A stretch of 64,000 nucleotides of DNA from Euglena gracilis (GCA_039621445.1 CP154954.1:37619703-37683702), one strand, 5' to 3'. Counted from the first letter of the stretch, positions 3,390-52,329 are shown. Notes: generated by a model from the letters alone, not told the origin. A program made the numbers and translations.

Positions 3390-3433
<44 letters not shown>

Positions 3434-13390: not shown

Positions 13391-13392
13391 CT

Positions 13393-13402
13393 TGGTAGCA
13401 GA
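13393..13402 (+). promoter_or_regulatory. Primer binding site TGGTAGCAGA (initiator tRNA-Met type); second copy at 13449-13458
   Basis: Lies 2 nt after the LTR CA. Complementary to ...UCUGCUACCA, the 3' end of many eukaryotic initiator tRNAs. Confidence 0.8.
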
Positions 13403-13702
13403 ATAGGTCAAAGATCCAACAGAAAGAAAGGCTACCAGGTAATACACTTGGTAGCAGATTTAGGCAACGAACCTACACAGACGTTCCACACAGAGAAACT
13501 CTGTGGTTGACTGGTGGTGAGGATCGTACTGAGCCGTGAAACACGGTGAAAGTACTGTTCCTGGCCCCTAGCCAACCTTTAAGCAAGGATACAGGTCTCA
13601 GAAGGCTCTGTTCGGTAATCGCCGATACAACCTTTCTGGTCCCTGTTTCTCTGCTTATTTGTGTGAATTTTTGGGTTTTTGCCTTTTTACCCATCTCAAA
13701 AG

Positions 13703-16700
13703 ATGCAGAGCACAAGCCCCAACCCCAAATTTGATTATGACTTGTTGATGAGTTCATTGAGCAATTGTGATGAAGATTGCGGGGATTGGAACGGTTTGAA
13801 TGAAACAAGTTCCAATTCCCGACCCCCCAAGCAAGAAGAAGGCAATTTGACTCATTTGTCATTGTCAAAAGGCGAAACGCCTTTATTATTGCATGGGGGT
13901 AATGAACCCTCTTCATCATCATTGTCATTGATTGTGCGGGATGTAGGTGGCAAAATGCCTTCCTCCATCCCGATTCACCCATCATTGATGCGGCGAGGGG
14001 ATGAACCCCTTGCCCCCTCACACTTGGTTACTCATGTTACCCATGAACAAAGTGAGGGGTATTTGCCCTTTGCTCTGTTCACACCCAAAAGATCCCCGGT
14101 GGAAGCACCGGTGGGCCTTTTGGAGTGCAACTCGGTGGAAACACCGTGTTTTTTCCAACCCCCCCTCAATTACCACCCCCCACACCATTTCACGCTTTGC
14201 CGGGATTACCCGCGGAAGCTGCGGTTTTCCCTGCATTGCCATGGAACCCAGATATGCGTCTGGTGGTGCCGGAAATCTCTGGTGCCGTTTCCATTGTGGA
14301 GGACTATGAGGAAGATTTGAGGGATAACCTCACCCCCGGTGATGTTTACCGAATTCTCGGTCAACTCCCAGCGGATCACCCGCTTAGCAAGCAAATTTTG
14401 CATGTCCACCAATGCGTTGCGGAATGCGCAACCATGCTCAACAAAGTTTTGCAGTTTGATGAGGACAATCAAAGGGTTGTCAACACCAAACTGGAATGTT
14501 GCTGGAATTATTTGCAGGAAATCGGCAAATATTGCCAACACAATTTTGAAAATGCGGGGAAAGACCTTCAGCATTTTCGAGAAAGTGTTGACAGTATTTT
14601 GCGCATCCAACTTCCACAAAATTTCCAACAAATCAGCGAAATGCTGCATGAAGCGGAAACGCGGAATGATTCCAAGTTTCTGCATGTGCAGGATGGTATG
14701 AGCCATCTTTTTGCCCAATTGGAATCCTGTTCAACCATGTTACTGCAGTTACAGCAGCAGCAGTTACAAGCGCAAAATGCCACCCCCAAAATGCCGGAAA
14801 TCGGTAACTTTGTCGCGGTTGAGCATTTTGCCGCACTTACCACTTCTTTCCAAGAAGCCCAACAACGGATTTTGCATCTTGGCTCGGAAATCGAGCACTT
14901 GAAGCAATTCCAGGCGAAAGTGCAAGAAAATTTTGTTCCCCGTACACAAATCCAGCTTTTGGAGGAACGAATTTCACACTTGGAGCAAAAATCCTGCCAT
15001 TGTGCCGCAAATCAGGATGGATTAACCACCTTGAACGCGAAAATCGCGGATTGCGCACAACGGTTGGATTTCACGCAACAACAAATGCAAACGGACATTG
15101 GCGGTATTAATGCCACCGTTGTCGGTTTGCAGGAGCATGTTTCTGCACTTTCCAAGCGAATTCCCGACATTAGTGGTATTCAAGCCGCTATTGGGGAATT
15201 GCAAACCCGTTGCACCTTGTTGTCCACCACAGTGACGGAAATCCGCTCACTACCCCCCATTTCGCGTGCTCGGATATCCGAGTCACCGGAATTTCGCTCA
15301 TTTTATGACAAAGTGCTTGGTGACAACAAGGAAACCTTGCAAGCATTTTGTACAAGTTTGCTCCAAATTGAGGAGGCGTGAACCGGAATGCCCGGTCCGT
15401 GCAAGATGAGGTTTCTCGGTTGGGTGGGAGAATTTCTAAGATGCTGGAAAATCCAACCGCGGAAAAGTCGCGCACCACCGTGGCATCCCCCACAAGTCAC
15501 TCCACCAATTGCAAACCGTCTCAAATGCGGTAGTAAAGCGCTTGCGGGTCAACTCCGGAATGTGGAGGAGTCCCAAGGAAATCTTGCCCAAGAATTACAC
15601 TTGGTTTCTGAAAAGTTGCCACACTTGGAAGATTTTTCCCGTTACCGCAAACGCATTAGGCATTTGGAGACTGAGGTTGACCGTATTTGCGGCCAACTCC
15701 AGTTGGTGGAACATTTGGAAGAAACGGTGCATGACTTGTCCGCGAGTTTGGATAAAATGTCCACTCCGATACCGGTTGTGCCACCATCCACCGCGGTAAG
15801 CGCTGCGGTTGGTATTCCAAATGTCCCGGAATCGCGTTCTCAAATTACCATTTCTGGAGTAGGAATCCCTACATCCACCGCGAATTTGGTACAACCACCC
15901 GCGAAAACGCGAATTGTACCACCTTTGCATTTGCCAACACCACAAACACACTCTTCGCACGACATTTCCGATGAGGAAATTGACCCCCACTCGAAAATTC
16001 GAGTCTCCACCAAGAAATTCAACATTCCAACCTTGTACGAGGAATGAGCCAACACCCCACACCTGGTATTGGTCATGTGTCGCAATCGCGATCATACCAA
16101 CAACCGACGGGTTCTGGAATGCCAGACCACCCATCGGGTTTTCGGCGGGAAACCCGCCACACTGAGAGGATTTCACCACATTTTTCGCAATTCCCGCAGG
16201 AAAATCCTGCCAACCTTACACTTGGTGCGGGAAATCCTGCACGGGTCAAACATGGAGCGGAAAATCCGCGAAACGCGTTTGGTGTTAAGAATTACCCTGA
16301 CCCAAACCCCTGGAATACCACCGAGGGTCAGCGGGTTACTCAGAGAGACTTCAAGGGCACCATCGCAATCGCGAACAAGGTGAAGCCCCAATGGGACGGG
16401 GATCCAACCACATGGAGACAATTTTTTCGGGACTGGGAGTACTATTGGGCACTAAAGGGACCCACCCAAGACCCGAATCCCGAGGTAGTCAAGATGGAAT
16501 TCATCGATTGCCTACCGAGGGAGGAGCGAGAACGCGCACGCAATTTGGTGATACGTAATGGCGTATCATTCGATGACCTGGTTGAGCAATACGCTTCAAC
16601 CAATTCAAGTCTGGTCACCAGGATTACCCTGGAGAAGAAGTGGCGACAATTCGCGCCATCTGATCGCAAATGGAAATCCATTGACCTTTGGTATGCCAAA

Positions 16701-17781
16701 TGGTTAGCACTTGCTTCCGAAGTTGATGAACTTAGCGAGAAGCAAATGCGCGAACAATTCGATGCGGTTTTGTTGCATTTCACACCATCCCTCGTGAAGG
16801 ATATCCATCGCGAGGAGTTGGCAGGGCATGAGATGACTCTTGCCCAACGTTGGAATTATGTGTCAAAGCAACTCAAGCTCACACAAGTTTTGGGACAAAT
16901 ACAGTCCGCTTTCCAAACGCATCCCACCGCGGGAATCCCTGCGGGTGCGGTTAATGCGTTGCAAAAATCACCCATGTCACCAAGATCACCCACCACGGGA
17001 TCGAAAACGCGGAATCAGCGTTCTTCGGACCAGGGCACGGATAAACTGTGCTTTTTGTGCAACAAATCTGGTCACATGTCTCGGGAATGCCCGAATCCCG
17101 ATGCGCGAAAGCGTATTGGAAGCCCAAGGGGCTCGACCTCCTCACGGGGATCGGGTTCCTCGGCGTTTTCACGTCAATCGGGAGTTTCACGGTCTTCGGA
17201 GAACCGCTTTAGCGGCAGTAGGCCCAAGTCACCATCGCGTGATGGTCGGGAAACCCGTCCTTCTCGCGGTCGGTCACCTGGCCCCCCCTGCCCGAAAACG
17301 GGATTTCAATCGCGATTCTTCACGATCTCGTTCGCGAAGTGGATCATCCTCTTCACGCGAGTCAACGGGGAAGTCCCGATACACCGGTCATGGTCGACGG
17401 GAAACCCGTTCACCACGACGGTTTGACGGAAAAACGGAATACCGTTCCCCCCGTTATGCGGAATCCCGCCACAAATCCCGTTGTTCACTTTGCGGTTCCA
17501 AAGATCACCACGCATCCAAATGTCCCAGATCTCGTTCCCCCCGGCCCGGCTACGGAAATCGCGGTAAGCGCCGCGATGACCGTGGTTACTCCTCCAACCG
17601 GCAAAAGGTCGGTTTCAAGATATCTTGTTTGGAGGAGGACACCCCGGCTTCGGGCAGGGAGGGGGATGAGACCTCGGATGGGGAATTTAATGAGGCCCGA
17701 ATGGCGGTGCGCTCATTGAATTCCATCTATTCCACCAAAAAGTCCGTTGCCGGCTATGCGGCCGGTTCGGACTTGGAGTAG
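13703..17781 (+). CDS. gag: Gag-like polyprotein (~1360 aa when joined; frameshifted in this copy): long coiled-coil N-region, capsid-like region, two CCHC zinc knuckles, RS-rich tail
   Basis: Pieces 13679-14320, 14125-15381, 15388-16047, 16044-17426, 16840-17781. CFLCNKSGHMSREC at 17049-17090 and CSLCGSKDHHASKC at 17482-17523. Copy 2 reads through the ~15375 and ~17290 breaks. Start codon uncertain. Confidence 0.82.
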
Positions 17782-17817
17782 GGGAGCCCGAGGTCCGAGG
17801 GCACGGACCTCTGGGCT
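17779..17817 (+). promoter_or_regulatory. Probable gag-pol stop-codon readthrough signal (UAG-G, 8-nt spacer, GC-rich stem-loop)
   Basis: The gag TAG is in frame with pol (15 open codons to ATG 17827). Stem GAGGTCCG/CGGACCTC at 17790-17811 can extend by AGCCC/GGGCT. Identical in copy 2 at 58351-58389. Confidence 0.7.
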
Positions 17818-20800
17818 GATGAACAGATGGAGGTAAGACCTGATCAACCTTACCCCCCCTGCCCATCTGCCTTCACGGTCAGTACCCGGAATTATTTCGG
17901 GTCCCCTACCACCTACTTCACATTTCCGCTCGGAATGCTGAGCAAAGAAGGAAAGGGTTCATGGGAGAGCTGGCATGCAAACGTATTTCCGCCAGACCCT
18001 TCACTTTGCGTACCACCAATGGAATTACTCGTCCAAGCGGAAATCCGCATTCAAAATTTCTCCACTAAAGTTAAAATTCTCATTGACACTGGTTGTCGCA
18101 TTGCACTGCTCTTTCGGTTGGGGTTGATACCGACCCCGCTCTTGGTAAGCGCCAAGAAACCGATCAAAATTACAACCGCGGATAACACCCCCATGTGTGG
18201 TGGTGATTTGGGATGTGTGCTCGAGATACTCTTGCCCATCATTCCGAAACATCACTCACAACCCCCACAAGTACAACATTTCACCAATATTTGGGGTTAC
18301 GAGTCCGGAATTCACGGGTCTGACGTAATTTTGGGATACCCATTTTTACGCCAGTACCGATTGGTTGTGGATTGCCACTCCCACGGTTTGCGCACAGCAC
18401 ACACCACTTCATTGACACCCAAACCACCATCACCGTTGTCATCCACTATGATGACCACCGCTTTGCCCACACCGTTATCCACAATGGCAACACCGTTACC
18501 CACCACACCAACAACCGTTTTCCACACCCGGGGTACGGAGAAAGCCTCCCCCCTGCCCAATGACACACCAACATGCGTTCCACATGAGGCAGGGCAAGCG
18601 AGTAGCGGTACCCCCGCCGTTCCACTGGGTTACAAGACGAAAGCCCAAAGGCCTGCAGTACGTACCGTGTCGAGTAGTCGCCCAGCTACACCACCACTCC
18701 GTTTCCCACCAGTTGTGCCGAATCCAGGCACACCTGTACAAGACTCACGGTCTAATGCCATCGACACCCACTTTCACGCACACCCGTCACACCATCACAC
18801 TTCCTTCCAATGTGTGCACTGCAGGAGAATTTCCACCCAATCGGATTTCGATTGTGGATGTTTAGTTCAAAATCCGACACTAATCACAATTCCGAATACG
18901 GAATACACACGCCATGATACACTTGGTTGTAGCCCGCAATGCGCGGAAATACACCGAGTACTCCAACAACGCGGATTAGCCTCGTTGTTCGGAACCGCGA
19001 AAAGCGCGATTCCTAATTACAATCGCGATCACACTTGGTACGGATTTGATGCGGAATGGGGAAACCCCCAACCTGTCCAAACTCCCTTGGGATTAACCCT
19101 TGAGGTAGTGGAAGACAACCCGCATGTTTGTGGATCCATTCATTGTGTTTCTTCACTCCAACCCGAAAATCGGGTGCATGAATACGCGAAACGCGTATGG
19201 AATGCTTTCAATTTTGGTCAATATCGCATTTTGGAACGATGGTTTTCCAAAATCGCGACATTGGCTGATTCTTTTGATTTGGCATTGGAAATCGATGCCT
19301 TCTCATCCAATGCACATGCCCGTTTGCCACGTCATTGGTCACAACACTCCAACGCATTTGATAAATTTTGGGGTGATACGGTGTTATGGATGCACCCTCC
19401 CCCAAAACTTATCGAATGTGCGGTTGAGAAAATTCTGCGGGATGAAGCCCGTGGAGTTATTCTCATACCCATCATTCCGGAAGCGGAATGGTTCACCCAA
19501 CTATCGTATGTATGTTTTCATTGGTGGGATTTACCCACTAATGTACCGATTTTTGAGGATTTTTGTGGTAAAATATTACCACCCTTGCAAGAAATCATTT
19601 TTCGCGTATGTTTCTTCGATGCATTCGGAATGTCCGAATTCGCGGTGCCGAGGAAGCTCGGTAGCCCCAGGGATACCCTGGTGGTTTCCGCAGTCATCGA
19701 GAGTGCAGGTCAGCATCCTAAGTCAGCCGAATTCTGTTCGCGGATTACCCGCGAATTCCACGGTGTGCTGGAAAATCCAGTATACGCGTGCGACATCGAC
19801 CCCGCGATACGCGGTCCGTTCGGTGTTTTGTAAGATCGAGCTTAAGGATGGAGCCAAGCCAATGCACCGGAAATTTTTTCGTTGTTCGGGAGAACGCGAA
19901 CAAGCTCTCAATGAAATGATTGAGAAGCTTATTCAGCGCAAGTGGATTGTACCCTCGAAAAGCGAGTGGACATCCCAGGCATTTGTTGTTCCTAAACCCC
20001 CAGACCCCTCAGGTCAGAAGAAATGGAGGCTGGTGCTGGATTACCGGTACCTGAACTCCCAAACAAGGGATGATCCCTTCCCGCTCCCCCTGATCGAGGA
20101 TTTGATCACCAAACAATCGGAAAACCGGTTGTGGTCAATTTTCGATCTGGAGGACGGTTTTCACCAAATGCACTTACACCCTGACTCCCAACCATACACG
20201 GCATTCGTGACATCCAAGGGTGTGTACCAATGGACGGTACTCCCCATGGGTGTTAAGAATGGCCCAGCCATGTTTCAGCGCATGATACAATGGGTTTTAC
20301 GCGACTTACCGTTTGCCATTGTGTACATTGATGATGTGCTGGTGGGAACACCACCACCATCCGCAAAATCGAGCGAGGATATCCTCGTCACACACTTCCA
20401 CCATGTTTGCGCGGTATTAACCGCTTTTCAAAAACATGTGCTTTTCGCGAAAGGCGCGAAAATGCATTTGTTTCGGATACTTATAAAATTTTGCGGTCAC
20501 ATCCTCAGCAATGGACAGCGGAAAGCCGCTCCGAGTAAACTCGAAGCCATTAAGAAATGGACCCCTGAGGTAATCAAAACGATTACTCACCTCAAAGGAT
20601 TTTTGGGATTAGCCCAATACTACGCGATTTATATGAAGGACTTCGCGGTGCCCCTCACCAAGCAGCTCAAAAACCGGGCTGTTGACAACACCAAAGTCAT
20701 TTGGGATGACCAAATGCGCGAGGCCCTTGAGAAAATCAAGGTTTTGCTTTTGGAGAATGTTGTCCTCGAAATCGCGGACCCGTACAAACCATACGTGTTG

Positions 20801-22872
20801 GAAGTCGACAGCAGCGATTACGCTGTTGGCGGAGTTCTTAGCCAGCATAATGCGGCGAATGAGCTCCGACCTGTGGCTTTCTTCAGCAGAAAGTTACAGG
20901 GCGACGATGGAAAAGGTCAAGTCAAATGGAGTATACGCGAGAAGGAAACCTACGCAATCGTGCTTATACTCCAGAAATTCCGAAGCTGGGTAGCCAGCAG
21001 CCTCGTCCAGATCCTCGTCAAGACCGACCATGAGAGTCTCCAACACTGGTACACCGAGGATTTGAACAAGGCCATGTCATCGGTCGGAAGGCGATGCAGA
21101 TGGCATGAGTTCTTGAGTCAATTCAACCTTGTGGTTATTTATACCCCTGGTCACACACAAAAAGTAGCGGATCCGCTCAGTCGGGCCCCTTGGTATTACC
21201 CTGGGAACCCGGATGAGGGAGACGCGACTTTTCATGGAAGTCAGGAAGCTGACGACTACGCACGTCGAAACGACGCTGCGGATAATCTTTTGGATTCTTT
21301 TCCCGTTTCACAACTATTCCTGGTCGCACCAGTGCGAGGAAGGCGCCGACGTGGAAGCACGTCCGGGCCCCGGCGTATTACGCGCACGGAGTCCCCTTCT
21401 CCACTGTTCTTTCGCGAATGGGATTATAGTCGTGATCCGGTGTATGACACCATTGTCACCAGACTTCGTAATGGCGAAGTGCTGGACAATTACACTCTTT
21501 CACCATTACGGTTGGTTTTCGCAATGAATCGGGTTACAAATATTGTATCCCCCAGGACCTGGTTGATGATGTGATTTTGTGTTATCACAACCATGGTCAC
21601 CCTGGGGCCCCCAAACTTCTTTCGTTGGTGGGCCGCAGGTACTGTACAACCCTGAGCGAGAAAGAGCTTTACTCACGCTGTTTGCGAATAGCGCAACGGT
21701 GTCAAATTTGTCAAGCGGTAAAACCCCGCAGAGGTACCCCCCCTGGTACGATGGACTTTTTCCCCGTACCCCCTGACATTTTTACATCCCTCTGCATGGA
21801 TTTTCTGGAATTAGAACCGTGCAAAGGAACAGACGACAAAATTTACGATTACGTTTTTGTTGTCGTCTGCAGGCTGAGTGGGTACATTGTAGCCATTCCA
21901 TGCCAGAAGTCAGGGTTGACTGCCCAAAGTTTGGCAACTATATTTTTGGAGAAATGCATTTGCTTGATGGGTTTACCGAATGAAATCGTGAGTGATCAAG
22001 ACCATTTGATTTCTTCAAGGTTTTTCACCACTTTGTGCGGTTTACTCGGAATCGAGCAACATTTTTCCATTATATACCGACCCAAAGGCAATGGTAGAGC
22101 CGAGGCAGCCGTGAAATCCGTCGTGAATATGCTTCGCCTTTCACTGGCTGACTCGCGCAGCAACTGGATATCAGTTCTACCATGGTCTTTGTTTTATATC
22201 AATACCCTACCAGGGTTGGTTTTACCTCACTCCCCCTATAAATTAGTTTTCGGACGGGACCCTCCGGCCATAGGGGATGTCCCTTCGGAGAGACCCGCCC
22301 GAACGAGTGTCAGTTGCGAGACCTGGTTTGCGGAAGTAGAAAATCTACGTTCTGCAGTCCAGAAGCGCGTGACTGATATTCATGCAGCAAAACGGAAATC
22401 GTTTTTGCAGAATTTCAAGTCACCTGTTTACAGTCCCGGTGACCGCGTGTGGGTACGGAATAGCCGTACTCGCATGCAGTCTTCCAAGCTGGACCCCCTC
22501 TGGCTCGGCCCCTGTGAAATCCTAGAAAGACTAGGTACCAGCGGGCGTTACAAGGTTGCATTACCGAATGGTGTTGAGGACGTTCATATGGACGACTTCA
22601 AACCATACCTGTCGCCACCGGATGGGAAACCCATCCCGTGTTTGCACTTCAAACCCCGTTCCAGATTACCTGAGACGGACGACTTTGTAGTCGATAAAAT
22701 TATCGATCACAAAATCGACAAAGGTATGCACCTTTGGAAGGTCCGCTGGAAAGGGTATGGGCCCGAGGAGGACACTTGGGAGCCAGCAACCAGTTTTGTT
22801 GGGTATGTCCAGCAAGATTGGAAGCTGTGGAACAAGAAACATAACATTGATGTTTCCATGACAAGTTTTTGA
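17782..22872 (+). CDS. pol: Pol polyprotein (~1700 aa; frameshifts near 19830 and 21520-21570): aspartic protease, adenine MTase-like domain, RT, RNase H, integrase, chromodomain
   Basis: LIDTG (DTG at 18085) and ILGYPFL; RT WRLVLDYRYLN, FDLEDGFHQ, LPMG, YIDD (20324); RNase H VDSSDYAVGGVL, EKETYAI, TDH, ADPLSR; IN H-H-C-C, MDF, SDQD, GRAE. Confidence 0.93.
19220..19620 (+). other. Dam-like (phage/DIRS-type) DNA N6-adenine methyltransferase domain within Pol
   Basis: LEIDAFSSNAHARLPRHWS...NAFDKFWGDTVLWMHPPPKLIECAVEKILRDEARGVILIPIIPEAEWF matches the DxFAS...N...DAF...W...(N)PP..LI..(V)L.K......LVVP.....W pattern. Motif IV reads HPPP. Confidence 0.75.
22684..22850 (+). other. Chromodomain at integrase C-terminus
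   Basis: FVVDKIIDHKIDKGMHLWKVRWKGYGPEEDTWEP with aromatic cage-type residues F/W/Y. Confidence 0.93.
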
Positions 22873-22894
22873 GAACGCATGGGAAACCCATGTT

Positions 22895-22943
22895 GTTTTC
22901 TCTTCTTTTTATCATTGATTCTTATCATTCTTTCTTTCCGCAG
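22895..22943 (+). promoter_or_regulatory. Putative splice acceptor (polypyrimidine tract + CAG) upstream of ORF3
   Basis: TTTTCTCTTCTTTTT...TTCTTTCTTTCCGCAG ending ~90 nt before ATG 23035. The AG-proximal part is conserved in copies 2 and 3. Confidence 0.6.
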
Positions 22944-23034
22944 ACTTTTTACCAAATAATACTCAAGCGGTTACCCTCACACACCTTACAACAAACAACC
23001 CAAACATCCCACCGTACCGACCCCGGGCTGTCAT

Positions 23035-26000
23035 ATGCTGCCCGGCGGAAGGGAGCCAGGCGGAGGACCGCCTTACCACCCCACCACTCACCCTCAACCT
23101 GACCAGTATGCGTACCGATACGGTACGCAGCCACCTGCACGGACTGCGGCTCAGGGAAACCCTGAAGCCAGCAGCAGTAGCAGGATGACCCAGATGCCCG
23201 CGGAAGCGCGGCCATCTCAGCCATCAGGCTCTCGTCGCCTCCCACCGTATGCGGGTGTGATGATCCACCGCACGGCGGAGACGATGAACCGGGTTATGCG
23301 TATGAGCGCAAACCCGGCACCAGACCAACTCACACAGGCATTGTGGGATGACCACTGCCGTAAAGTTTTGACCATCGCGAATACCCCTCCAGCCCTGTGG
23401 TGTATGTGCGCCCAGGCGACGATGACCGGTCTGGTGTATTACACCGACCCGGACGCGTCGGGATTCGCGGCAGACATTACCATGCGTGACCTGGGCGTGG
23501 AAGTCCCGCCACAGGTCGCCAGGCAGGTACCACCTGTTGGCACTTACACTGCACATTTTCGTGCTCACTCCCCCGGATTACCCGAGGAAGAGACGGTGGA
23601 AGCACCTGTCCGGAGTGAACACCCACGTGTAAAAGAAAGTATTTTTCGATCCCCTGAGCGCATGCCCCGGCGGGATTATCCTGCGCAGGAGCCTGTGTCT
23701 CAGTATACCGTCTCTGGGGATTACCCCAGCAGGCGCCAATGCCACGGGATCAGTACGTATATCCACCTCAACCCCACCCAACCATACCTGACCCTATCCC
23801 ACGACGTCCTGCGGAGGGAAATCCTCCCCCGACGTCTGACTCTGCCCGAAGCGCTCGTCCGCGGGAAGCCGCGACAGCGCCTCGTGCGGCACCAGTTCCC
23901 CCGGCACGGGATGAACCCGTTAACCCGTGGACTGGTCGGCCGTTCGAGACTGAGGAGGACCGTCAACAGTATGAATATGCTGTGACGATCCAACGACAAA
24001 TCGCACGTCGCCCCCCTGTTTCCGCTGGCCAGGGATACCCTGCCCGGGCGGAAATGACACGGGAAGAGCGCCAGCAGTATGATGCTGCTGTGTCGGCTCT
24101 CACAGGAGTCCCAGCTCCATCACGGTTAAGTCAACCAGCGCGACAGCGGGACGTGGCTGTGGCGGAAGCGCCACCAGCACGACCCACAAGCTCTGCCGCC
24201 GGCAAACGTGACCGCGGCCCGGAAAATCTGACGCCGCAGCCACAACGCCGCTCGCCGAGGTCGGAAAATCCGCCCGCGGCGATGCGCGTCGACGCTGAGG
24301 AGGAAGCTCCGCCAGCGCCCGACGTGACGGCAGAACGGGCACGTCGGGAAACCCGACCATCCCCAGTCGCACCGGTTTACTCGAATCGTGGTGATGCTGA
24401 GCAGGAATTTGCTCGAACACCAAGCACGGAATCCGTGACTTATCCTGTGTATACAGAAGAAGACCCAGAATACTGGGAATATTGGGACCCATATCGGGCG
24501 ACGATAGAATGGCTGTCCAACACGAAGGGCAAGGGTAAAGGAAAAGGCAAGGGTAAGGGTAAAGGTAAAGGCCAGGAGAAAGGTGGGAAAGCCCCATCTG
24601 GGAAAGGCGGAAAACCCGCTGGACCACCTCCAGGCAAAGGCGGAAAATCTGCCGGACCCCCAGCAGGAAAAGGCGGAAAAGCCGCCGAACCTTCGAAAAC
24701 GAAGGATTACGACGCTGACCAGCTGTTCGATTACTTGGATGAAATCTGGCCGAAAATCGACCAGGATCTCGAAAAGTACACGCGTGCTGGCAACGTGATC
24801 CACCGACCACCGGAAGCGGTGCTCGCAGTGGTGCAGGATCGTATGCACGATCACTGCAAACGATTCATCTACAGTACCGAACTTCATCCGTTTGAGGGAT
24901 ACCCTCATTCGGATGAAATGGTCCTGGACCAGATGTCTGGTTTCTGGGAACTCTGGTTCTGGTTGGGATATCCCTGCCAGAACTTTGGCATTTTCACCGA
25001 CCGAAACGGTCTGACATACATCGATTGTTTGAACACATGTGAAGACGATGAAACATTCGTAGCACAGTTGAAGGAAATCTTCAACCACATGTATTCCGTC
25101 AGCGCACTGGGAATCCAGTGGAAATATTACCCCCTGCCGGAGAAACTCCAGGCGCAGGCGGTAACGTTCACAAACAACCTCCAAGTATTCTTGGACAGCA
25201 TGTATGGCATGCTGTTCAAGGTACTGGACGTGGACCTCGCCTACCCTCAACGATACAAACTGGAATGCCGGTTTTGCAAGGAAGTCCACATTGTTGACTT
25301 CTGGGGTTTCGGGGAGCGCGGAAAACCGCCTCCGACTGCCGAGAATGCCGGCAGCCCACCGACCAGGAGATTCCTCCTGCATCAGTGCCGGAAACCCCAG
25401 ATCGGAACGCAAGACCGGAAGGTGCTGAAACAGCACCGGCAGAAAATATTTCTGCTCCAACAATACTGGCACAGGGCGTGGATTACCTACGTCCTGGAAG
25501 TATATATATATTTCCTGGAGCAGATGACCACCGATGTGGATATCCACAGGAAGTGGATACCTCGGGGATACACCGAGGTAGATGCCAGACCGTATGATCC
25601 AGACCGACGCAGGATAAACCTGCGGCCGGACTGGACGGGGGCAGAAATCGGCCTCCGGGAACACCTGCAGAGCCAGTTCGGGGAAATCCTGGACTGGCAG
25701 GAGTTCGAAGTGTTCTTCGCTCCCCGCGAGCTAAGCCAACCTCGCTACGCAGTACCACTGCCAGCTTTCCTGGAAGAAACGGGAGAGTATGGTATGGGTG
25801 AGGCCCGTCGATCGCAGTGGGAAGACCTCTGCCTGATCAACGAGGATGAGCCTCAACCTCCACCCGGAAGCTGGGTGCGAGCGTCGTGGCCACCTCCATA
25901 CCCCAACTCTGACAGGAGTGAAAGTATTAGCTTTTTCCGCCTGTCAAATGCCCAAGGGTGCTACAGAAGCAGGGAAGACCCGCGTTCTGCAGCCCAACTA

Positions 26001-27973
26001 CACACAGAGGAGTCCCCTCTGGAAGCGGAGGAGACAGGAGAAGCGGTCCCAATGGCCGAGGATGAACCTCAGCCTGCGGAACCCCCGGCACGGGAAACCC
26101 GTAGCCCGTCGGTCGTGATGCTGGACACTGTGGCGGAAACCGCCCAGCGCCCAGGATCACCGAGAGGTGAACTGACGCCTGTCCCACTGTCACCATCCTC
26201 GCTGGGTACGCCTGGCGGACCGACCCCTCCGCGGGAAAACCCGCCGGAGACGGTAACCCCTACGCCTGAGGTATTACGCCTCAAGCTTCCTGTCCCCGGG
26301 GAAATCCCGACGACAGAGGAGCCAGTGGAGGAGCCCACTTCAGGGGAAGGACCTGAACGGCGCCCCTCACTGGGCGGACGTGTACTCGGTGGTTTGCGAT
26401 CACTGATCGCAGTTGTCACCCCACGTGGCACTGCGGCTAGTTCTTCCACTGCTGTGGCGGAAACGGCCCAGCCAGACGACGAAACAACTGAAGCTGCAGC
26501 CATGGAGGAGGATGAACCTCCCCCAATGGCCGCGCCACCGCCGGTGTCGGAAACGACACGGACGGAGGACGAACCAACGGCAATGTCAGTGGTGGCAACG
26601 CTACCCGTGCCAGTGCAGGATGAACCCACATTAGCACCGGTAGCGGGATCAGAGGCACGGGATGAGCCCGTACCTCCACAACAGCGGTCACTGCACCAAA
26701 GCGTGCGGGCACACGGACACCGGCACCTGAAAAACAGGCTGCACGGACATCCATGCCCCCACCACAGACTCCGCCAACGCGAAGTGCAGCGGCGACGCCC
26801 ACACCAACACCATCCTCCACGACTGCTCCTGGGAAACCCACGAGCGCAGCGAAGGAACGCGTAGGGCGACCCTCAGCTCGGGAAACCCCTGCTGAAGGTC
26901 AACGACGCTCGGTGTCGGGGAAAAGACCCCCGGCCCAGCCGTCACCACGCACCTGGTCAAGCAAGCGTGACGCCGAACGGCGACCCTCGGATGCTCCGGA
27001 AAGCGGAAGTCCGAAGGCCCCGGCCAAATCAAAGCCCGGTGCCGCGCCTTGCAAACCCTCACCTAAACCAGCTGATCAGCCCCCCCCGAAAGGCGGTGGT
27101 GGTGCTGGAGGCCAGGGTGCATCTTCTTCTCGAGGATTAGCCTCGGGAGGAGGATTCACACAGGTCACATCATCCGGCTATGGGAAAACCTCACAGCCGA
27201 AACCACCTACGAAGGGGCAGGGAAAATCCCGCGCCTCTACGACTACGACACCTTCGGAAGGCGAAGTTGTCATCGACTGGAATGCGATGACTCAGGATGA
27301 TCCTGAGACTCATGACCTGAAAAACAGGTACATGATGATCGAACACAAGCTGCGAACAGACCAATGCCTCAATCGGTGGATTGAACCACTGTTCTGTCAA
27401 GGACGGAAATGGTCCTTTGACCAGAATGTCACCTGGAATTATTACAATTCCAGATCACCACGTGTTTTGGCCCAATACTTTGGCGAGGAATTCCTCGTCG
27501 ACAGAACATCGGAAAACCGATTTGTGTGGCTCTGCACTGTTTGCCACAGGATGTACAACAGTGCCCCTGACTTGGGATTACCCCTCGTCCATGTGTGCAA
27601 CCCTGTGGAGCGGAAATCGTTCCACAAGGATATGTACATACCCAACTGTGCCGCCTTGGTATGCGCCAAGTGCGTGGACAGTTGGACCCACAAGCACAAT
27701 TTTTGCTACACGGAACGAGATGGTACGAATGTACCAGTACTCTGCGTCAACTGCCTGCGAGGTACCTTCTGGCACACTGCGGAAGGCGCAGTTCGCACAA
27801 TCGTGCCGAGTGCCGAGAAGCCACTGGAGGAATACTCCACCTTGAACAAAAAGTTCAAGGACTTATTCAAGTATGCCAACCTCAAGCTCGACGACTACCG
27901 CACACGGGAATGGCCCGTGGGTGGCAGATCGACAGTGGGGCGATACGCCTCGCTGCTGAGGAAGCAGGGGTAA
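23035..27973 (+). CDS. Accessory ORF3 of unknown function (~1650 aa when joined): Pro-rich regions, KG/GKGGK repeats, aromatic-rich globular domain, Cys-rich finger
   Basis: Pieces 23035-23985, 23739-26864, 26753-27973. Copy 3 reads through the ~23730 break. Substitutions between copies are largely conservative. Confidence 0.8.
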
Positions 27974-28473
27974 GATTACCTTACCTCTGGGAGACAGCGG
28001 ACAGGGAAAAGATACTTTTCCGCCTGTTCACAACCCAGGACCGAAACGGTCGCTGGTGCCTACCACAATGGCCACCCGAAAAACACGGGATGACCTGGAA
28101 GGACTGGCTAGGGGCCGTATTGCGACCCCATACAGTCCGGGCGGAATGCGCCTATCACGTTCCCATCGACTTCCACCCGGGGAATGCCCCGCAGGTGTCA
28201 GCCAATCACCCTCGGAGAAACTACTTCATCTGGCCAGCGACTTTGCCCAGGAAATTCTGGGAGAAGCTGCAGTGGTTTCTCGCGGAAAGAGCGAGTGCCA
28301 CCAAGCAGACAGTACCCGAAGGATGGGTTCGGGACTGGATCGCACCTGATTTCGACTACGACTCGCCAGAAACCTGGCTTGTCGACAGGCCACAGCCACC
28401 ACAATTCCAGATGGTCCTTGTGGAAGATCCCTTGGACTCCCGCCATGACTATTGGCGGCTGGAGCGGATGTAA
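27970..28473 (+). CDS. Trp-rich coding segment, probably the frameshifted C-terminus of ORF3 or a separate small ORF
   Basis: Open frame VRLPYLWETADREK...DYWRLERM continuing directly from the ORF3 stop at a GGGG run; protein-like composition. Confidence 0.5.
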   Translation, partial: VRLPYLWETADREKILFRLFTTQDRNGRWCLPQWPPEKHGMTWKDWLGAVLRPHTVRAECAYHVPIDFHPGNAPQVSANHPRRNYFIWPATLPRKFWEKLQWFLAERASATKQTVPEGWVRDWIAPDFDYDSPETWLVDRPQPPQFQMVLVEDPLDSRHDYWRLERM

Positions 28474-29353
28474 TGCCGAAACGGCATTACCAAGCCCATG
28501 TAAGGTAAGCGCCTTCATGGAGCTCATACATCCATATATATATACACTGGAAGCGGAAATCGCTAAACAGCCCTGGGATGAACCTGGGTCTGTGTCCCTC
28601 AGCGCTCTGGATGGAAGCATCCAAGAGCCCCCCCCCCCCTGCCAACCCATTATACCAGTGACCATGCGGACGGAAACCGTCTGCGGGAGGTAATCGCCTC
28701 TTATTGCGTCGTGAAGGAGCTACTGCTGTGAAGACCTTGGCAGCCGGGAAGCCTGGCAAGCCGCTAAGTGACACACAGCACACAGCGCGCACGCCGTAAT
28801 AATAGGCCAACTTGTCACTTTTCGGCCCTAAGGCCTCTTAAGGCTGCCAGACAGCAAAAATTCTGTCCTGGCCTAAGCCAGCCCAGCCCCCCTCTCCTCC
28901 CTACTTTCCCCCCACCCCCGCAAAGCTGTCGCCAGCAGTCGGTTTTGTAAGTAGGCTTTTGTTTCCTAGTGCGGATATGACCGCTTAGGAGCTCTATCCG
29001 GGTATGACCAGGATAGGAGCCTGCCCCCCCCTTCCACACATCTCCCCGCAGGTTTTCAGCGAATCGCTTGACCAACCCCGCGTGCCTTTGGCACACCCAA
29101 AGCGGGTGGATGGGACACTTTGTCAGGACACCTGCCAAGCCCCGTTTCCCACAGTGGGCTTTTTCACACCCCGCCTAAGCCGAAACGGCTAATAGGTAAC
29201 CGCGAAATGCGGCGCGTTTTTGGGCTTTGGGTGGATGCCACTGTGCGGAAAGGAGAGACACCGAATGGAGAAGTGAACCCCACCTGGGGCAGCGGCAGAT
29301 ATCCTGACTGGACTGGGAATCCCTGGTCCATGAAGTAAATCGGGCGTAGCCCT

Positions 29354-29363
29354 GGGAGGGGGA
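29354..29363 (+). promoter_or_regulatory. Polypurine tract GGGAGGGGGA
   Basis: Immediately 5' of the 3' LTR start TGTGTACC. Sister family has GGGAGGGGG at the same position. Confidence 0.88.
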
Positions 29364-29562
29364 TGTGTACCAGGCACGTCCCTGCTCTGTAGGATATCTG
29401 CAGAGTGGGTTACAAGGAATTGGGAGGAAAAAAGAAGGACGCCCCCGAAAACACTTTCGTTACCCAAATTTTCTCGCTCCAAAAAGGCGCTTGCAGAGGT
29501 CGGCGATCCTTTACCTAAGGCGAAGATAGGCTTTTACAGAAAGTCCCCGGGAAAAAGGGAAA
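29364..29562 (+). repeat. 3' LTR of copy 1, partial and interleaved with satellite sequence
   Basis: 29364-29411 matches the 5' LTR start with one mismatch. Later LTR words (GGAATTGGGA, AGGCTTTTACAGAAAGT) alternate with satellite words. Confidence 0.75.
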
Positions 29563-32500
29563 AATAGCACGTAAGTGACGGACGCCCCCAGAAACGTCAT
29601 TGTTCGGCCGTTTTCGGGCCGTTTTCGGCCGAAATCGGCTGCGCCGGCGCTCCAAAAAACGTCAAGGTCGGCGATCCTTTACCTAACTGTTTGCGGCCGA
29701 GATAGCCGAAATGCCCGCGGCGGGCGGGCGTAAAAACGTACGGGAGGCGCAAAATAGCACGTAAGTAACGGACGCAGAAACGTCATTTTTCGGGCGTTTT
29801 CTGCCGAAATCTGCTGCGCCGGCCCTCCAAAAACGAGCGCTCTGCCCCGGCTAGAGGTCGGCGCTTCTTTACCTAACTGTTGCGAAGGGCGGCGGGCGGA
29901 TAGCCGCAATTTTGCCCGCGGCGGGCGGGCGTAAAACGCAGCCGTTACCGCCCGGGAGGCGCAAAATAGCACGTAAGTAACGGACGCCCCCAGAAACGTC
30001 ATTTTTCGGCCGTTTTCGGCCGAAATCGGCTGCGCCGGCGCTCCAAAAACGAGCGCTCTGCCCCGGCTAGAGGTCGGCGATCCTTTACCTAACTGTTGCG
30101 AAGGGCGGCGGGCGGATAGCCGCAATTTTGCCCGCGGCGGGCGTGCGTAAAACGCAGCCGTTACCGCCCGGGAGGCGCAAAATAGCACGTAAGTAACGGA
30201 CGCCCCCAGAAACGTCATTTTTCGGCCGTTTTCGGCCGAAATCGGCTGCGCCGGCGCTCCAAAAACGAGCGCTCTGCCCCGGCTAGAGGTCGGCGATCCT
30301 TTACCTAACTGTTGCGAAGGGCGGCGGGCGGATAGCCGCAATTTTGCCCGCGGCGGGCGTGCGTAAAACGCAGCCGTTACCGCCCGGGAGGCGCAAAATA
30401 GCACGTAAGTAACGGACGCCCCCAGAAACGTCATTTTTCGGCCGTTTTTGGCCGAAATCGGCTGCGCCGGCGCTCCAAAAACGAGCGCTCTGCCCCGGCT
30501 AGAGGTCGGCGATCCTTTACCTAACTGTTGCGAAGGGCGGCGGGCGGATAGCCGCAATTTTGCCCGCGGCGGGCGTGCGTAAAACGCAGCCGTTACCGCC
30601 CGGGAGGCGCAAAATAGCACGTAAGTAACGGACGCCCCCAGAAACGTCATTTTTCGGCCGTTTTCGGCCGAAATCGGCTGCGCCGGCGCTCCAAAAACGA
30701 GCGCTCTGCCCCGGCTAGAGGTCGGCTCTCCTTTACCTAACTGTTGCGAAGGGCGGCGGGCGGATAGCCGCAATTTTGCCCGCGGCGGGCGTGCGTAAAA
30801 CGCAGCCGTTACCGCCCGGGAGGCGCAAAATAGCACGTAAGTAACGGACGCCCCCAGAAACGTCATTTTTCGGCCGTTTTCGGCCGAAATCGGCTGCGCC
30901 GGCGCTCCAAAAACGAGCGCTCTGCCCCGGCTAGAGGTCGGCGATCCTTTACCTAACTGTTGCGAAGGGCGGCGGGCGGATAGCCGCAATTTTGCCCGCG
31001 GCGGGCGTGCGTAAAACGCAGCCGTTACCGCCCGGGAGGCGCAAAATAGCACGTAAGTAACGGACGCCCCCAGAAACGTCATTTTTCGGCCGCTGCGCCG
31101 GCGCTCCAAAAACGAGCGCTCTGCCCCGGCTAGAGGTCGGCGCTTCTCTACCTAACCCTTGCGAAGGGCGGCGGGCGGATAGCCGCAATTTTGCCCGCGG
31201 CGGGCGTGCGTAAAACGCAGCCGTTACCGCCCGGGAGGCGCAAAATAGCACGTAAGTAACGGACGCCCCCAGAAACGTCATTTTTCGGCCGTTTTCGGCC
31301 GAAATCGGCTGCGCCGGCGCTCCAAAAACGAGCGCTCTGCCCCGGCTAGAGGTCGGCGATCCTTTACCTAACTGTTGCGAAGGGCGGCGGGCGGATAGCC
31401 GCAATTTTGCCCGCGGCGGGCGTGCGTAAAACGCAGCCGTTACCGCCCGGGAGGCGCAAAATAGCACGTAAGTAACGGACGCCCCAGAAACGTCATTTTC
31501 GGCCGTTTTCGGCCGAAATCGGCTGCGCCGGCGCTCCAAAAACGAGCGCTCTGCCCCGGCTAGAGGTCGGCGCTCCTTTACCTAACTGTTGCGAAGGGCG
31601 GCGGGCGGATAGCCGCAATTTTGCCCGCGGCGGGCGTGCGTAAAACGCAGCCGTTACCGCCCGGGAGGCGCAAAATAGCACGTAAGTAACGGACGCCCCC
31701 AGAACCGTCATTTTTCGGCCGTTTTCGGCCGAAATCGGCTGCGCCGGCGCTCCAAAAACGAGCGCTCTGCCCCGGCTAGAGGTCGGCGCTCCTTTACCTA
31801 ACTGTTGCGAAGGGCGGCGGGCGGATAGCCGCAATTTTGCCCGCGGCGGGCGTGCGTAAAACGCAGCCGTTACCGCCCGGGAGGCGCAAAATAGCACGTA
31901 AGTAACGGACGCCCCCAGAAACGTCATTTTTCGGCCGTTTTCGGCCGAAATCGGCTGCGCCGGCGCTCCAAAAACGAGCGCTCTGCCCCGGCTAGAGGTC
32001 GGCGCTCCTTTACCTAACTGTTGCGAAGGGCGGCGGGCGGATAGCCGCAATTTTGCCCGCGGCGGGCGTGCGTAAAACGCAGCCGTTACCGCCCGGGAGG
32101 CGCAAAATAGCACGTAAGTAACGGACGCCCCCAGAAACGTCATTTTTCGGCCGTTTTCGGCCGAAATCGGCTGCGCCGGCGCTCCAAAAACGAGCGCTCT
32201 GCCCCGGCTAGAGGTCGGCGCTCCTTTACCTAACTGTTGCGAAGGGCGGCGGGCGGATAGCCGCAATTTTGCCCGCGGCGGGCGTGCGTAAAACGCAGCC
32301 GTTACCGCCCGGGAGGCGCAAAATAGCACGTAAGTAACGGACGCCCCCAGAAACGTCATTTTTCGGCCGTTTTCGGCCGAAATCGGCTGCGCCGGCGCTC
32401 CAAAAACGAGCGCTCTGCCCCGGCTAGAGGTCGGCGATCCTTTACCTAACTGTTGCGAAGGGCGGCGGGCGGATAGCCGCAATTTTGCCCGCGGCGGGCG

Positions 32501-35500
32501 TGCGTAAAACGCAGCCGTTACCGCCCGGGAGGCGCAAAATAGCACGTAAGTAACGGACGCCCCCAGAAACGTCATTTTTCGGCCGTTTTCGGCCGAAATC
32601 GGCTGCGCCGGCGCTCCAAAAACGAGCGCTCTGCCCCGGCTAGAGGTCGGCGATCCTTTACCTAACTGTTGCGAAGGGCGGCGGGCGGATAGCCGCAATT
32701 TTGCCCGCGGCGGGCGTGCGTAAAACGCAGCCGTTACCGCCCGGGAGGCGCAAAATAGCACGTAAGTAACGGACGCCCCCAGAAACGTCATTTTCGGCCG
32801 TTTTCGGCCGAAATCGGCTGCGCCGGCGCTCCAAAAACGAGCGCTCTGCCCCGGCTAGAGGTCGGCGATCCTTTACCTAACTGTTGCGAAGGGCGGCGGG
32901 CGGATAGCCGCAATTTTGCCCGCGGGGGGCGTGCGTAAAACGCAGCCGTTACCGCCCGGGAGGCGCAAAATAGCACGTAAGTAACGGACGCCCCCAGAAA
33001 CGTCATTTTTCGGCCGTTTTCGGCCGAAATCGGCTGCGCCGGCGCTCCAAAAACGAGCGCTCTGCCCCGGCTAGAGGTCGGCGATCCTTTACCTAACTGT
33101 TGCGAAGGGCGGCGGGCGGATAGCCGCAATTTTGCCCGCGGCGGGCGTGCGTAAAACGCAGCCGTTACCGCCCGGGAGGCGCAAAATAGCACGTAAGTAA
33201 CGGACGCCCCCAGAAACGTCATTTTTCGGCCGTTTTCGGCCGAAATCGGCTGCGCCGGCGCTCCAAAAACGAGCGCTCTGCCCCGGCTAGAGGTCGGCGA
33301 TCCTTTACCTAACTGTTGCGAAGGGCGGCGGGCGGATAGCCGCAATTTTGCCCGCGGCGGGCGTGCGTAAAACGCAGCCGTTACCGCCCGGGAGGCGCAA
33401 AATAGCACGTAAGTAACGGACGCCCCCAGAAACGTCATTTTTCGGCCGTTTTCGGCCGAAATCGGCTGCGCCGGCGCTCCAAAAACGAGCGCTCTGCCCC
33501 GGCTAGAGGTCGGCGATCCTTTACCTAACTGTTGCGAAGGGCGGCGGGCGGATAGCCGCAATTTTGCCCGCGGCGGGCGTGCGTAAAACGCAGCCGTTAC
33601 CGCCCGGGAGGCGCAAAATAGCACGTAAGTAACGGACGCCCCCAGAAACGTCATTTTTCGGCCGTTTTCGGCCGAAATCGGCTGCGCCGGCGCTCCAAAA
33701 ACGAGCGCTCTGCCCCGGCTAGAGGTCGGCGATCCTTTACCTAACTGTTGCGAAGGGCGGCGGGCGGATATAGCCGCAATTTTGCCCGCGGCGGGCGTGC
33801 GTAAAACGCAGCCGTTACCGCCCGGGAGGCGCAAAATAGCACGTAAGTAACGGACGCCCCCAGAAACGTCATTTTTCGGCCGTTTTCGGCCGAAATCGGC
33901 TGCGCCGGCGCTCCAAAAACGAGCGCTCTGCCCCGGCTAGAGGTCGGCGATCCTTTACCTAACTGTTGCGAAGGGCGGCGGGCGGATAGCCGCAATTTTG
34001 CCCGCGGCGGGCGTGCGTAAAACGCAGCCGTTACCGCCCGGGAGGCGCAAAAATAGCACGTAAGTAACGGACGCCCCCAGAAACGTCATTTTTTCGGCCG
34101 TTTTCGGCCGAAATCGGCTGCGCCGGCGCTCCAAAAACGAGCGCTCTGCCCCGGCTAGAGGTCGGCGATCCTTTACCTAACTGTTGCGAAGGGCGGCGGG
34201 CGGATAGCCGCAATTTTGCCCGCGGCGGGCGTGCGTAAAACGCAGCCGTTACCGCCCGGGAGGCGCAAAATAGCACGTAAGTAACGGACGCCCCCAGAAA
34301 CGTCATTTTTCGGCCGTTTTCGGCCGAAATCGGCTGCGCCGGCGCTCCAAAAACGAGCGCTCTGCCCCGGCTAGAGGTCGGCGATCCTTTACCTAACTGT
34401 TGCGAAGGGCGGCGGGCGGATAGCCGCAATTTTGCCCGCGGCGGGCGTGCGTAAAACGCAGCCGTTACCGCCCGGGAGGCGCAAAATAGCACGTAAGTAA
34501 CGGACGCCCCCAGAAACGTCATTTTTCGGCCGTTTTCGGCCGAAATCGGCTGCGCCGGCGCTCCAAAAACGAGCGCTCTGCCCCGGCTAGAGGTCGGCGA
34601 TCCTTTACCTAACTGTTGCGAAGGGCGGCGGGCGGATAGCCGCAATTTGCCCGCGGCGGGCGGCGTGCGTAAAACGCAGCCGTTACCGCCCGGGAGGCGC
34701 AAAATAGCACGTAAGTAACGGACGCCCCCAGAAACGTCATTTTTCGGCCGTTTTCGGCCGAAATCGGCTGCGCCGGCGCTCCAAAAACGAGCGCTCTGCC
34801 CCGGCTAGAGGTCGGCGATCCTTTACCTAACTGTTGCGAAGGGCGGCGGGCGGATAGCCGCAATTTTGCCCGCGGCGGGCGGGCGTAAAACGCAGCCGTT
34901 ACCGCCCGGGAGGCGCAAAATAGCGTAAGTAACGGACGCCCCCAGAAACGTCATTTTTCGGCCGAAATCGGCTGCACAGGCGCTCCAAAAACGAGCGCTC
35001 TGCCCCGGCTAGAGGTCGGCGATCCTTTACCTAACTGTTGCGAAGGGCGGCGGGCGGATAGCCGCAATTTTGCCCGCGGCGGGCGTGTGTAAACGCAGCC
35101 GTTACCGCCCGGGAGGCGCAAAATAGCACGTAAGTAACGGACGCCCCCAGAAACGTCATTTTTCGGCTGTTTTCGGCCGAAATCGGCTTCTCCGGCGCTC
35201 CAAAAACGAGCGCACTGCCCCGGCTAGAGGTCGGCTCTCCTTTACCTAACTGTTGCGAAGGGCGGCGGGTGGATAGCCGCAATTTTGCCCGCGGCGGGCG
35301 TGCCCTAAAACGCAGCCGTTACCGCCCGGGAGGCGCAAAATAGCACGTAAGTAACTGACGCCCCCAGAAACGTCATCTTTCGGCCGTTTTCGGCCGAAAT
35401 CGGCTGCGCCGGCGCTCCAAAACCTAGCGCTCTGCCCCGGCTAGAGGTCGGCGCTCCTTTACCTAACTGTTGCGAAGGGCGGCGGGCGGATAGCCGCAAT

Positions 35501-51119: not shown

Positions 51120-51127
51120 ACTGGAAG

Positions 51128-52150: not shown

Positions 52151-52329
52151 TTACTGGCGGCATATACCGCTGGTGAGGGCTGCACAGTATTGCGCGGACA
52201 CGGCGTTGGCGATGGGGTATCCCCAGGGGCTTATACCTCAGAACAGCGGGCAGTAGCCCTAAAAACTGTAGATTTGGCATTTGTGCCTTGGGTGTGCAGC
52301 CTGTAGGCTGAAGGGTTGGCATTAGCCAA

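Follow-up and report, generated by a model that had tools for sequence, protein, structure and literature searches.

The coding region downstream of pol

The window analysed here is a stretch of 64,000 nucleotides (nt) from Euglena gracilis (GCA_039621445.1 CP154954.1:37619703-37683702), and all positions are counted from its first letter. Among arrays of a 216-bp satellite it holds a 16.5-kb Ty3/gypsy chromovirus, called el below, which runs from 12986 to about 29411 on the + strand. Between the pol stop (22870-22872) and a stop at 28471-28473, el carries ~5.4 kb of + strand coding sequence, called ORFx below (ORF, open reading frame). It is read in the sense direction and sits downstream of the chromodomain integrase and upstream of the polypurine tract. 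Our results favor, with some reservation, the view that it is the element's own very large accessory gene, which encodes ~1,800 residues, belongs to an undescribed family and has been under purifying selection in the lineages from which the copies descend.

An earlier note on this DNA, made from the sequence alone, had described a large coding region after pol. The region is present as described, and its longest piece reaches 1068 codons, whereas the longest ORF in 500 simulated sequences of equal dinucleotide content averaged 178 codons and never exceeded 344. The same note took it for one intact ORF, which is not the case in el. Four overlapping open frames cover the interval, namely 22960/23035-23985 (frame 1), 23658-26864 (frame 0), 26666-27973 (frame 2) and 27571-28473 (frame 1), so that ORFx is made up of four pieces in frames 1, 0, 2 and 1, all on the + strand. 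Piece 1 (23035-23724, frame 1) begins at the first ATG, 23035, and has a Pro-rich N-terminus, a moderately hydrophobic block at 23215-23600 and an LPPY motif at 23239. Piece 2 (23727-26690, frame 0, open over 23658-26864) contains, in this order, a Pro/Arg-rich linker, EYWEY at 24468, GK and KGGK repeats ((GK)7 at 24528; (GK)7 and the KGGK repeats together span 24528-24690), block C (24690-25960) and an acidic Pro-rich linker. Piece 3 (26666-27900, frame 2) consists of a basic Ser/Thr/Pro-rich linker followed by block F (27272-27898), and piece 4, which is block G (27901-28473, frame 1), is a Trp-rich C-terminal module that ends at the stop 28471-28473. Low-complexity linkers lie between hydrophobic-rich blocks at ~24700-25800 and 27270-28470, in agreement with the alternation of globular blocks and linkers seen earlier.

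The el copy of ORFx is decayed and has three frame breaks. We compared it with two other copies in the 64-kb window, c2 and c3, and with contigs of public sequencing runs. At break 1 (23724-23727), the length of el differs by one base from that of c2 and c3, which both run from frame 1 straight into frame 0; c2 has an unbroken 549-codon ORF across the site (48642-50291, minus strand). At break 3 (27900-27901, frame 2 to frame 1), some genomic copies show a one-base length difference. In DNA run X1, 16 contigs (depth 107066 of 243476) read through this break, as does the sole covering contig of X16 (depth 11.1 of 11.1); X17 gave no read-through (0 of 9.2), and X15 had zero depth at the site. 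Break 2, from frame 0 to frame 2, was placed from codon-position base composition only. A C-rich second codon position, the mark of frame 2, is present already over 26690-26830, and since this signature begins at ~26690 we put the break at 26666-26700. Because two of the three breaks are read through in other copies, the original gene probably had ~1,800 codons, and we lean towards the view that ORFx was originally one continuous ORF.

Selection on ORFx and the relatives of block C

Selection was measured between el and c2 (46999-51119, minus strand), a partial, diverged copy that equals el 22002-26153 at 89.6% identity. Nei-Gojobori estimates of dN/dS, the ratio of non-synonymous to synonymous substitution rates (omega), were in frame 0.29 over 23035-23723, 0.38 over 23730-24690 and 0.26 in block C (dS 0.46, dN 0.12). 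Over 23730-26150 omega was 0.32, with 141.7 synonymous and 168.3 non-synonymous changes (p = 1e-20, Fisher's). The other two + frames gave 1.27 and 1.53 over this interval and 1.25-1.66 in sub-segments. In antisense, the codon-aligned frame, with its ORF of 534 codons (24126-25730, minus strand), gave 1.35 over 23730-26150 (range 1.2-1.5), and the wobble-sharing antisense frame alone mirrored the in-frame signal (0.34-0.46), as expected. The integrase segment of the same two copies had an omega of 0.49. Indels between el and c2 in ORFx include in-frame ones of 12 nt and 3 nt. These results indicate that ORFx is very probably coding and selected, and that block C has diverged considerably yet stayed constrained.

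The earlier note had likewise called ORFx selected, with dN/dS across copies as the check, and the in-frame values of 0.26-0.38 are not near 1. The evidence comes from c2, not from c3, the copy to which that note had pointed. The description of the differences from c3 as mostly conservative was not borne out: over the overlap with el (23035-24172) there are 7 synonymous and 12 non-synonymous changes, omega is 1.0 and 0.54 in two segments, and the ORFx start of c3 (62870-64000, + strand), which the window end cuts at the equivalent of el 24172, has a 10-nt and a 5-nt deletion.

Base composition by codon position was also determined. GC at positions 1, 2 and 3 was 0.585/0.383/0.641 in block C, 0.483/0.378/0.641 in block F and 0.616/0.479/0.658 in block G, and the three blocks share the pattern of genuine genes, seen also in the reverse transcriptase (RT), with low GC at position 2 (0.38-0.48) and high GC at position 3 (GC3; 0.64-0.66). 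For blocks F and G, the case for a coding function comes from the length of the ORFs, from codon composition and from the frame join in other copies.

To find relatives, an exhaustive phmmer search of the 1068-residue piece was run against 1.84 billion representative proteins (E<=0.001) and returned 9 matches, none with a name or a Pfam domain. Seven of the 9, from ~1-kb read-assembly contigs, are fragments of only 74-189 aa with 47-69% identity. P0007 (689 aa, E 1.3e-9, 25% identity) and P0009 (470 aa, E 4.4e-6, 26% identity) are distant homologues of block C; both are unnamed, stand-alone ORFs from environmental assemblies. A profile search with alignment A1 returned only P0007, P0011 and P0002, with P0011 (319 aa, 83% identity) being new. 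In alignment A3 (el, c2, P0011, P0002 and P0007), C133, C136, D143-F-W-G, G148-E-R, K152, H171 and C173 were invariant in all five sequences. The family core can be written C-x2-C-x6-DFWG[FL]GER...H-x-C and is preceded by EYWEY and GK repeats; in the folded-looking block C of el, C-x2-C lies at 25266, followed by DFWGFGER, H-x-C at 25380 and PPPY at 25890. P0009 carries a variant of the core, C-x2-C...DFWGLPVR...H-x-C. The invariant Cys and His residues suggest a likely zinc site. P0007 has its elements in the order found in el (EEYWEY, GK repeats, then block C), which indicates that the architecture is older than this genome. Behind block C, short strings of the linker such as SPSVVMLDTV and EVLRLKLPVP are kept in several of the fragments.

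Other searches returned no relatives. A word-based protein search with block C in the 1068-aa ORF found none among 3237 candidates. JGI metagenome scans gave 65 pattern matches with a single protein and 154 with alignment A3, none of them confirmed, and viral contig scans gave 0/32 and 0/10 confirmed pattern matches. The Protein Atlas had no usable match to block C, no PDB sequence search, whether with block G, with piece A or with the block C profile, found anything below E 0.25, and BLASTP among the ORFx pieces, gag, pol and the 5' ORFs found nothing below E 0.02. Pfam assigned no family to any ORFx piece at E<=0.01, nothing relevant at E<=1, and no env or fusion-glycoprotein match. From its sequence, ORFx represents an undescribed family with no known domain, which upholds the unknown, non-env family of the earlier note.

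The absence of a signal peptide and a transmembrane anchor, also noted before, was confirmed. The maximum of a 19-residue Kyte-Doolittle window across all four pieces was 1.16, with no membrane helix, and the N-terminus, MLPGGREPGGG, is Pro/Gly-rich and shows no signal peptide. Since ORFx has neither of these features and no Pfam family, it is not an env gene, and its protein would have an intracellular role, not that of an envelope.

Possible roles of the protein and competing explanations

Block F contains a Cys/His cluster (27533-27754, + strand) that reads CTVC...HVC...C-x4-C-x2-C...H-x-H-x2-C...CVNC and resembles a RING finger below threshold. In a PDB sequence search with block F, five of the six chains at E<=10 were RING, from three proteins: RNF141 twice (E 0.074, 0.093), CBL twice (0.5, 0.63) and EL5 (0.53). 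These chains align on NCAALVCAKCVDSWTHKHNFC of block F, and the RING-like alignment to them is NCAALVCAKCVDSW...C. With a 92-residue piece of block F, four of the eight Pfam families at E<=10 were RING models (E 0.44-3.2), with bit scores against cut-offs of 11.1/30 for zf-C3HC4_4, 10.5/27.3 for zf-RING_2, 8.3/27.9 for zf-RING_5 and 8.3/27 for zf_RING-like. Protein Atlas scores for block F were 0.83-0.87, those of RING clusters 0.83-0.84, with the mark at 0.9. A word-based protein search with block F found none among 22 candidates.

The RING consensus is C-x2-C-x9-39-C-x1-3-H-x2-3-C/H-x2-C-x4-48-C-x2-C, with eight ligands. In block F, CTVC-x34-C-AALV-C-AK-C agrees with this spacing for ligands 1-3, 5 and 6, and the typical Trp also fits. 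The likeness to the RING E3 ubiquitin ligases (2ecn_A, 2k4d_A, 1iym_A) lies in C-x4-C-x2-C-V-D-S-W-x5-C with flanking C-x2-C pairs; unlike them, block F has Ala in place of His at ligand 4, its ligands 7 and 8 (C7-x2-C8) are non-adjacent, the E values are 0.07-0.6, and the Pfam scores stay far below their cut-offs. With every RING score sub-threshold and the ligand pattern incomplete, we do not assign block F to the RING-type zinc fingers, and a RING-like finger at 27533-27754 is a weak lead.

Short motifs occur in the linkers and blocks. Besides LPPY at 23239 there are PPPY at 25890, which is kept in P0011, KR-x13-RR at 24204, and SPKA and SPKP at 27008 and 27059. The LPPY/PPPY, KR-x13-RR and SPKA/SPKP motifs may be WW-domain, nuclear-import and minor-groove motifs, respectively. 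The SPKx and KR...RR motifs and the Cys/His modules are the only pointers to the nuclear, anti-silencing or targeting role that the earlier note had proposed, which the protein might have.

For expression, a pyrimidine-rich tract of 54 nt ending in CAG (22890-22943, + strand) lies 92 nt upstream of the ORFx ATG at 23035, and the tract and CAG are retained in 3/3 in-window copies. In sequence, the tract looks like a splice acceptor, as for retroviral env RNAs. The sole AGGTRA donor-like site in 13300-16100 is at 13437. Contigs of X15, X16 and X17 fall on 30/30 bins of the element, ORFx included; X17 is a leaf-litter metatranscriptome RNA library, and the other two runs are guessed to be RNA.

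From these features a working mechanism can be drawn. The protein would be translated from a subgenomic, probably spliced RNA via the tract and CAG at 22890-22943. It would comprise a possibly folded N-terminal region (23215-23600) and three folded-looking modules (24690-25960, 27272-27898 and 27901-28470), with long disordered linkers between them. The Cys/His modules may bind zinc and could target nucleic acid, chromatin or a host protein, and the disordered linkers would supply short docking motifs; LPPY, PPPY and the RING-like finger might link the protein to the host ubiquitin system. Either route could aid replication of the element or its escape from host restriction in satellite heterochromatin. 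An adaptor or E3-like mechanism of this kind is tentative, and we consider it doubtful. More speculative still, ORFx may be the founding member of a family of giant retroelement accessory proteins across eukaryotes, with the 25%-identity homologues from environmental assemblies among its members, in which ubiquitin hijack by an atypical RING-like/PPxY protein and C2HC binding of nucleic acid or chromatin would help chromoviruses persist and amplify in satellite (possibly centromeric) heterochromatin; we regard this as quite unlikely.

Several points, together with the incomplete RING pattern and scores, weigh against the account of ORFx as a single accessory gene with such a mechanism. No intact ORFx was seen among the copies: el has 3 breaks, c2 is interrupted by two in-frame stops and by the loss of one base at the equivalent of el 25967, and c3 has 2 deletions. 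The selection signal is confined to the part covered by c2. A second copy of blocks F and G was sought in the window and none was found, and neither the PDB search with block G nor the searches with block F gave a homologue. AlphaFold2 predictions for block C (9-row alignment) and block F (single sequence) failed, with a pLDDT (predicted local distance difference test) of 38.4 and 36.1. The donor-like site at 13437 lies inside a 56-nt stretch that is absent from c3; it was dropped as a leader splice donor, and for this reason no donor is named. The RNA evidence consists of contigs only, with possible DNA content, from which transcription, strand and level are not deducible, and an RNA-run joint was found in none of the 15 joints listed, with 471 further joints outside the list. 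Lastly, break 2 was set by base composition alone, so the gene could be two ORFs, and GC3 is higher in blocks C, F and G (0.64-0.66) than in pol (0.50-0.55), which fits a foreign origin.

The position of break 2 bears on the alternative that keeps most of its ground, namely that there are two or more accessory genes, ORFx1 (23035-~26864) and ORFx2 (from the ATG at 26753 to 28473), which are either separate or joined by a -1 frameshift at G_GGA_AAC (26831-26837). The frame-0 and frame-2 pieces share 199 nt, there is an ATG at 26753 in frame 2, and the in-frame slippery heptamer at 26831 stands 25 nt ahead of the frame-0 stop (26862-26864). A structure that starts 5 nt past the heptamer (heptamer and structure, 26831-26937) has -44.5 kcal/mol and a z of -2.28, with 3/200 shuffles as stable, and P0007 carries block C and nothing like blocks F and G. 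However, the frame-2 signature is present from ~26690, 140 nt upstream of the heptamer, and 26700-26860 reads in frame 0 as an atypical His/Arg-rich string. Breaks 1 and 3 are plain one-base length differences between copies, and by our estimate a canonical heptamer turns up in such an overlap by chance in ~1/8 cases. A programmed -1 frameshift at 26831 is disfavored, since the codon-position pattern is that of frame 2 already upstream of it; the heptamer is probably coincidental. We consider a division into two or more genes less likely than a single accessory gene.

A further explanation is that one or more genes of the host, or of another foreign source, were captured downstream of pol and now move along with the element. 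Selection would then have preserved their cellular function or a domain that the element borrowed; an old capture would overlap with an accessory gene of the element. The GC3 difference from pol favors it. So does the mosaic nature of the copies: identity between el and c2 is ~95% up to ~24400 and abruptly 73-89% beyond, which indicates recombination between subfamilies inside ORFx and shows modular exchange. P0007 (689 aa) and P0009 (470 aa), as stand-alone ORFs, point the same way. Against capture, a conserved host family should show in annotated proteomes, whereas the search of 1.84 billion proteins gave only 9 unnamed matches, and the pol-to-ORFx junction is identical in 3/3 in-window copies. 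Capture is therefore judged unlikely.

Long frames opened by chance in a decaying, GC-rich 3' internal region, or a gene on the antisense strand of the kind found in plant Retand, would account for the frame breaks in el, the antisense ORF of 534 codons at 24126-25730 and the GC content of 54-59%. Such an origin is very improbable in view of a piece of 1068 codons against a simulated 344, an in-frame omega of 0.26-0.38 against 1.2-1.5 in antisense, and homologues at 25% identity. A divergent envelope or membrane-fusion protein, to which the location behind pol and the acceptor-like tract upstream would be suited, is the least credible of all, with no hydrophobic N-terminus, no segment over Kyte-Doolittle 1.16 and no env Pfam family.

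Comparable genes, the host element and its satellite setting

Extra ORFs in LTR (long terminal repeat) retrotransposons are established and uncommon, and ORFx shares their position and logic. LTR retrotransposons of bdelloid rotifers carry non-env ORF3s that encode a GDSL esterase and a DEDDy exonuclease (Rodriguez, Kenefick & Arkhipova 2017, PMC5408684). ORFx is like these in being a sense-strand, non-env third ORF past pol in a Ty3/gypsy-like element, with modular acquisition. Unlike those recognizable enzymes, it has no Pfam family, is several times larger and consists mostly of disordered linkers and Cys/His modules. In plant Retand, the region between POL and the 3' LTR is 2.9-6.6 kb long and holds antisense TRP28 ORFs, whose function is described as unknown, possibly nucleic-acid binding (Vicient 2025, PMC11963269). 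The element el likewise has a pol-to-3' LTR interval of several kb (here 6.5 kb) with extra coding capacity; however, the Retand elements are non-chromoviruses with antisense ORFs, whereas the selected frame of ORFx is sense and el has a chromodomain integrase.

Giant Gypsy elements of Phalaenopsis bear an AlkB (2-ODD) ORF with demonstrated demethylase activity (Alvarado-Marchena et al. 2022, PMC9289625). It too is a rare, fixed additional ORF in a large Ty3/gypsy element, there proposed to counter host surveillance; ORFx differs in having no known enzymatic fold or demonstrated activity. Env-bearing Ty3/gypsy elements occur widely among animals, and some of them have chromodomains (PMC13524379). 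ORFx resembles retroviral and errantiviral env in its position after pol and its likely need for a subgenomic RNA (PMC13524379, PMC2774666), and is unlike env in having no signal peptide, membrane anchor or fusion-protein family. The ORFx pieces, P0007, P0009 and P0011 had no Pfam match to GDSL esterase, DEDDy exonuclease, AlkB 2-ODD or TRP28, with the presence of a TRP28 model in the Pfam copy unchecked. A non-exhaustive literature search found no account of a comparable ORF or of the 216-bp satellite.

ORFx stands apart from these cases by its sense orientation, the absence of a membrane segment and of any known domain, and its much larger size; the gene is real and new. Extra genes of LTR retrotransposons are rare and reveal the dealings of element and host, and the known ones encode envelope proteins, esterases, exonucleases and, in one case, an RNA demethylase. 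The present chromovirus, abundant and embedded in satellite DNA, gives one third of its length to a protein that is selected, has no membrane segment and is without a known match, and related proteins occur also in unrelated environmental sequence. If a function such as ubiquitin hijacking, chromatin targeting or RNA handling were found, ORFx would define a new class of retroelement accessory factor and might help explain the colonization of satellite arrays. If ubiquitin hijacking proved true, it would be a retrotransposon counterpart of the viral E3-type counter-defence proteins.

The upstream part of el (12986-22872, + strand) consists of the 5' LTR, the PBS-like (primer-binding-site-like) sequence TGGTAGCAGA, 5' ORFs, gag, RT/RNase H and an integrase with a C-terminal chromodomain. 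The 5' LTR opens with TGTG at 12986, is ~400 nt long and is followed by TGGTAGCAGA, which may be initiator-tRNA-like. Pfam identified a gag zinc knuckle (zf-CCHC) in 15984-17426, RVT_1 (E 1e-24) and RT_RNaseH within 19109-21574, and rve, Integrase_H2C2, SH3_Tf2-1 and Chromo in 21472-22872, which correspond to the zinc-binding, core, SH3 and chromodomain parts of the integrase. The chromodomain match (PF00385 Chromo) has an E of 2.2e-10 and 40.7 bits against a cut-off of 25.1, at residues 405-440 of the integrase ORF. The order RT, RNase H, integrase is that of Ty3/gypsy elements, and with the gag knuckle and the chromodomain these matches identify el as a Ty3/gypsy chromovirus. At the 3' end (29354-29411, + strand), the polypurine tract GGGAGGGGGA at 29354-29363 is followed by the LTR from 29364, the first 48 nt of which match 12986-13033 at 98% identity; the LTR breaks off there, and satellite sequence follows.

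Several features of the 5' and pol regions were recorded besides. The element el duplicates the PBS-like sequence as TACACTTGGTAGCAGA in a 56-nt stretch (13386-13441), which c3 lacks. The gag zinc-knuckle ORF is preceded by two ORFs of unknown family (14056-16047). The first of these, with 441 codons (14056-15381), has a dN/dS of 0.27 between el and c3, compared with 0.97-2.2 off frame, and a sub-threshold coiled-coil-type match only in Pfam; the second (15388-16047) has a dN/dS of 0.67 between the same copies. On these values, either the 5' region of el offers further coding capacity or its gag is very long. The pol region (17782-22872) is divided among three frames, with an in-frame stop at 17779-17781, and other genomic copies, in public-run contigs, are one base longer or shorter than el at 19826 and 21515. 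As the pol frames are also broken, the whole el copy is decayed, and ORFx is not alone in this.

The 216-bp satellite, with 62% GC, fills 1-12982 and 29561-46998 of the window, and the retroelement copies interrupt its arrays. A scan of the whole window with Rfam gave no match, and no tRNA genes were found. The satellite has a CpG observed/expected ratio of 1.5, and 134 copies of it were found; the surroundings of el may be centromeric or heterochromatic. The copy c3 (53591-64000, + strand) is ~95% identical to el and stops at the window edge, at the equivalent of el 24172. It holds a 2.1-kb segment (54954-57060) that is inverted relative to el 14377-16488, and the inversion breaks the gag ORF. 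Between c2 and c3, a stretch of 2.4 kb (51120-53590) is without protein similarity to el; within it, 190 nt at 51959-52147 (minus strand) match the 3' untranslated region of el (28770-28959) at 78%, and the stretch is possibly the terminal part of a related element.

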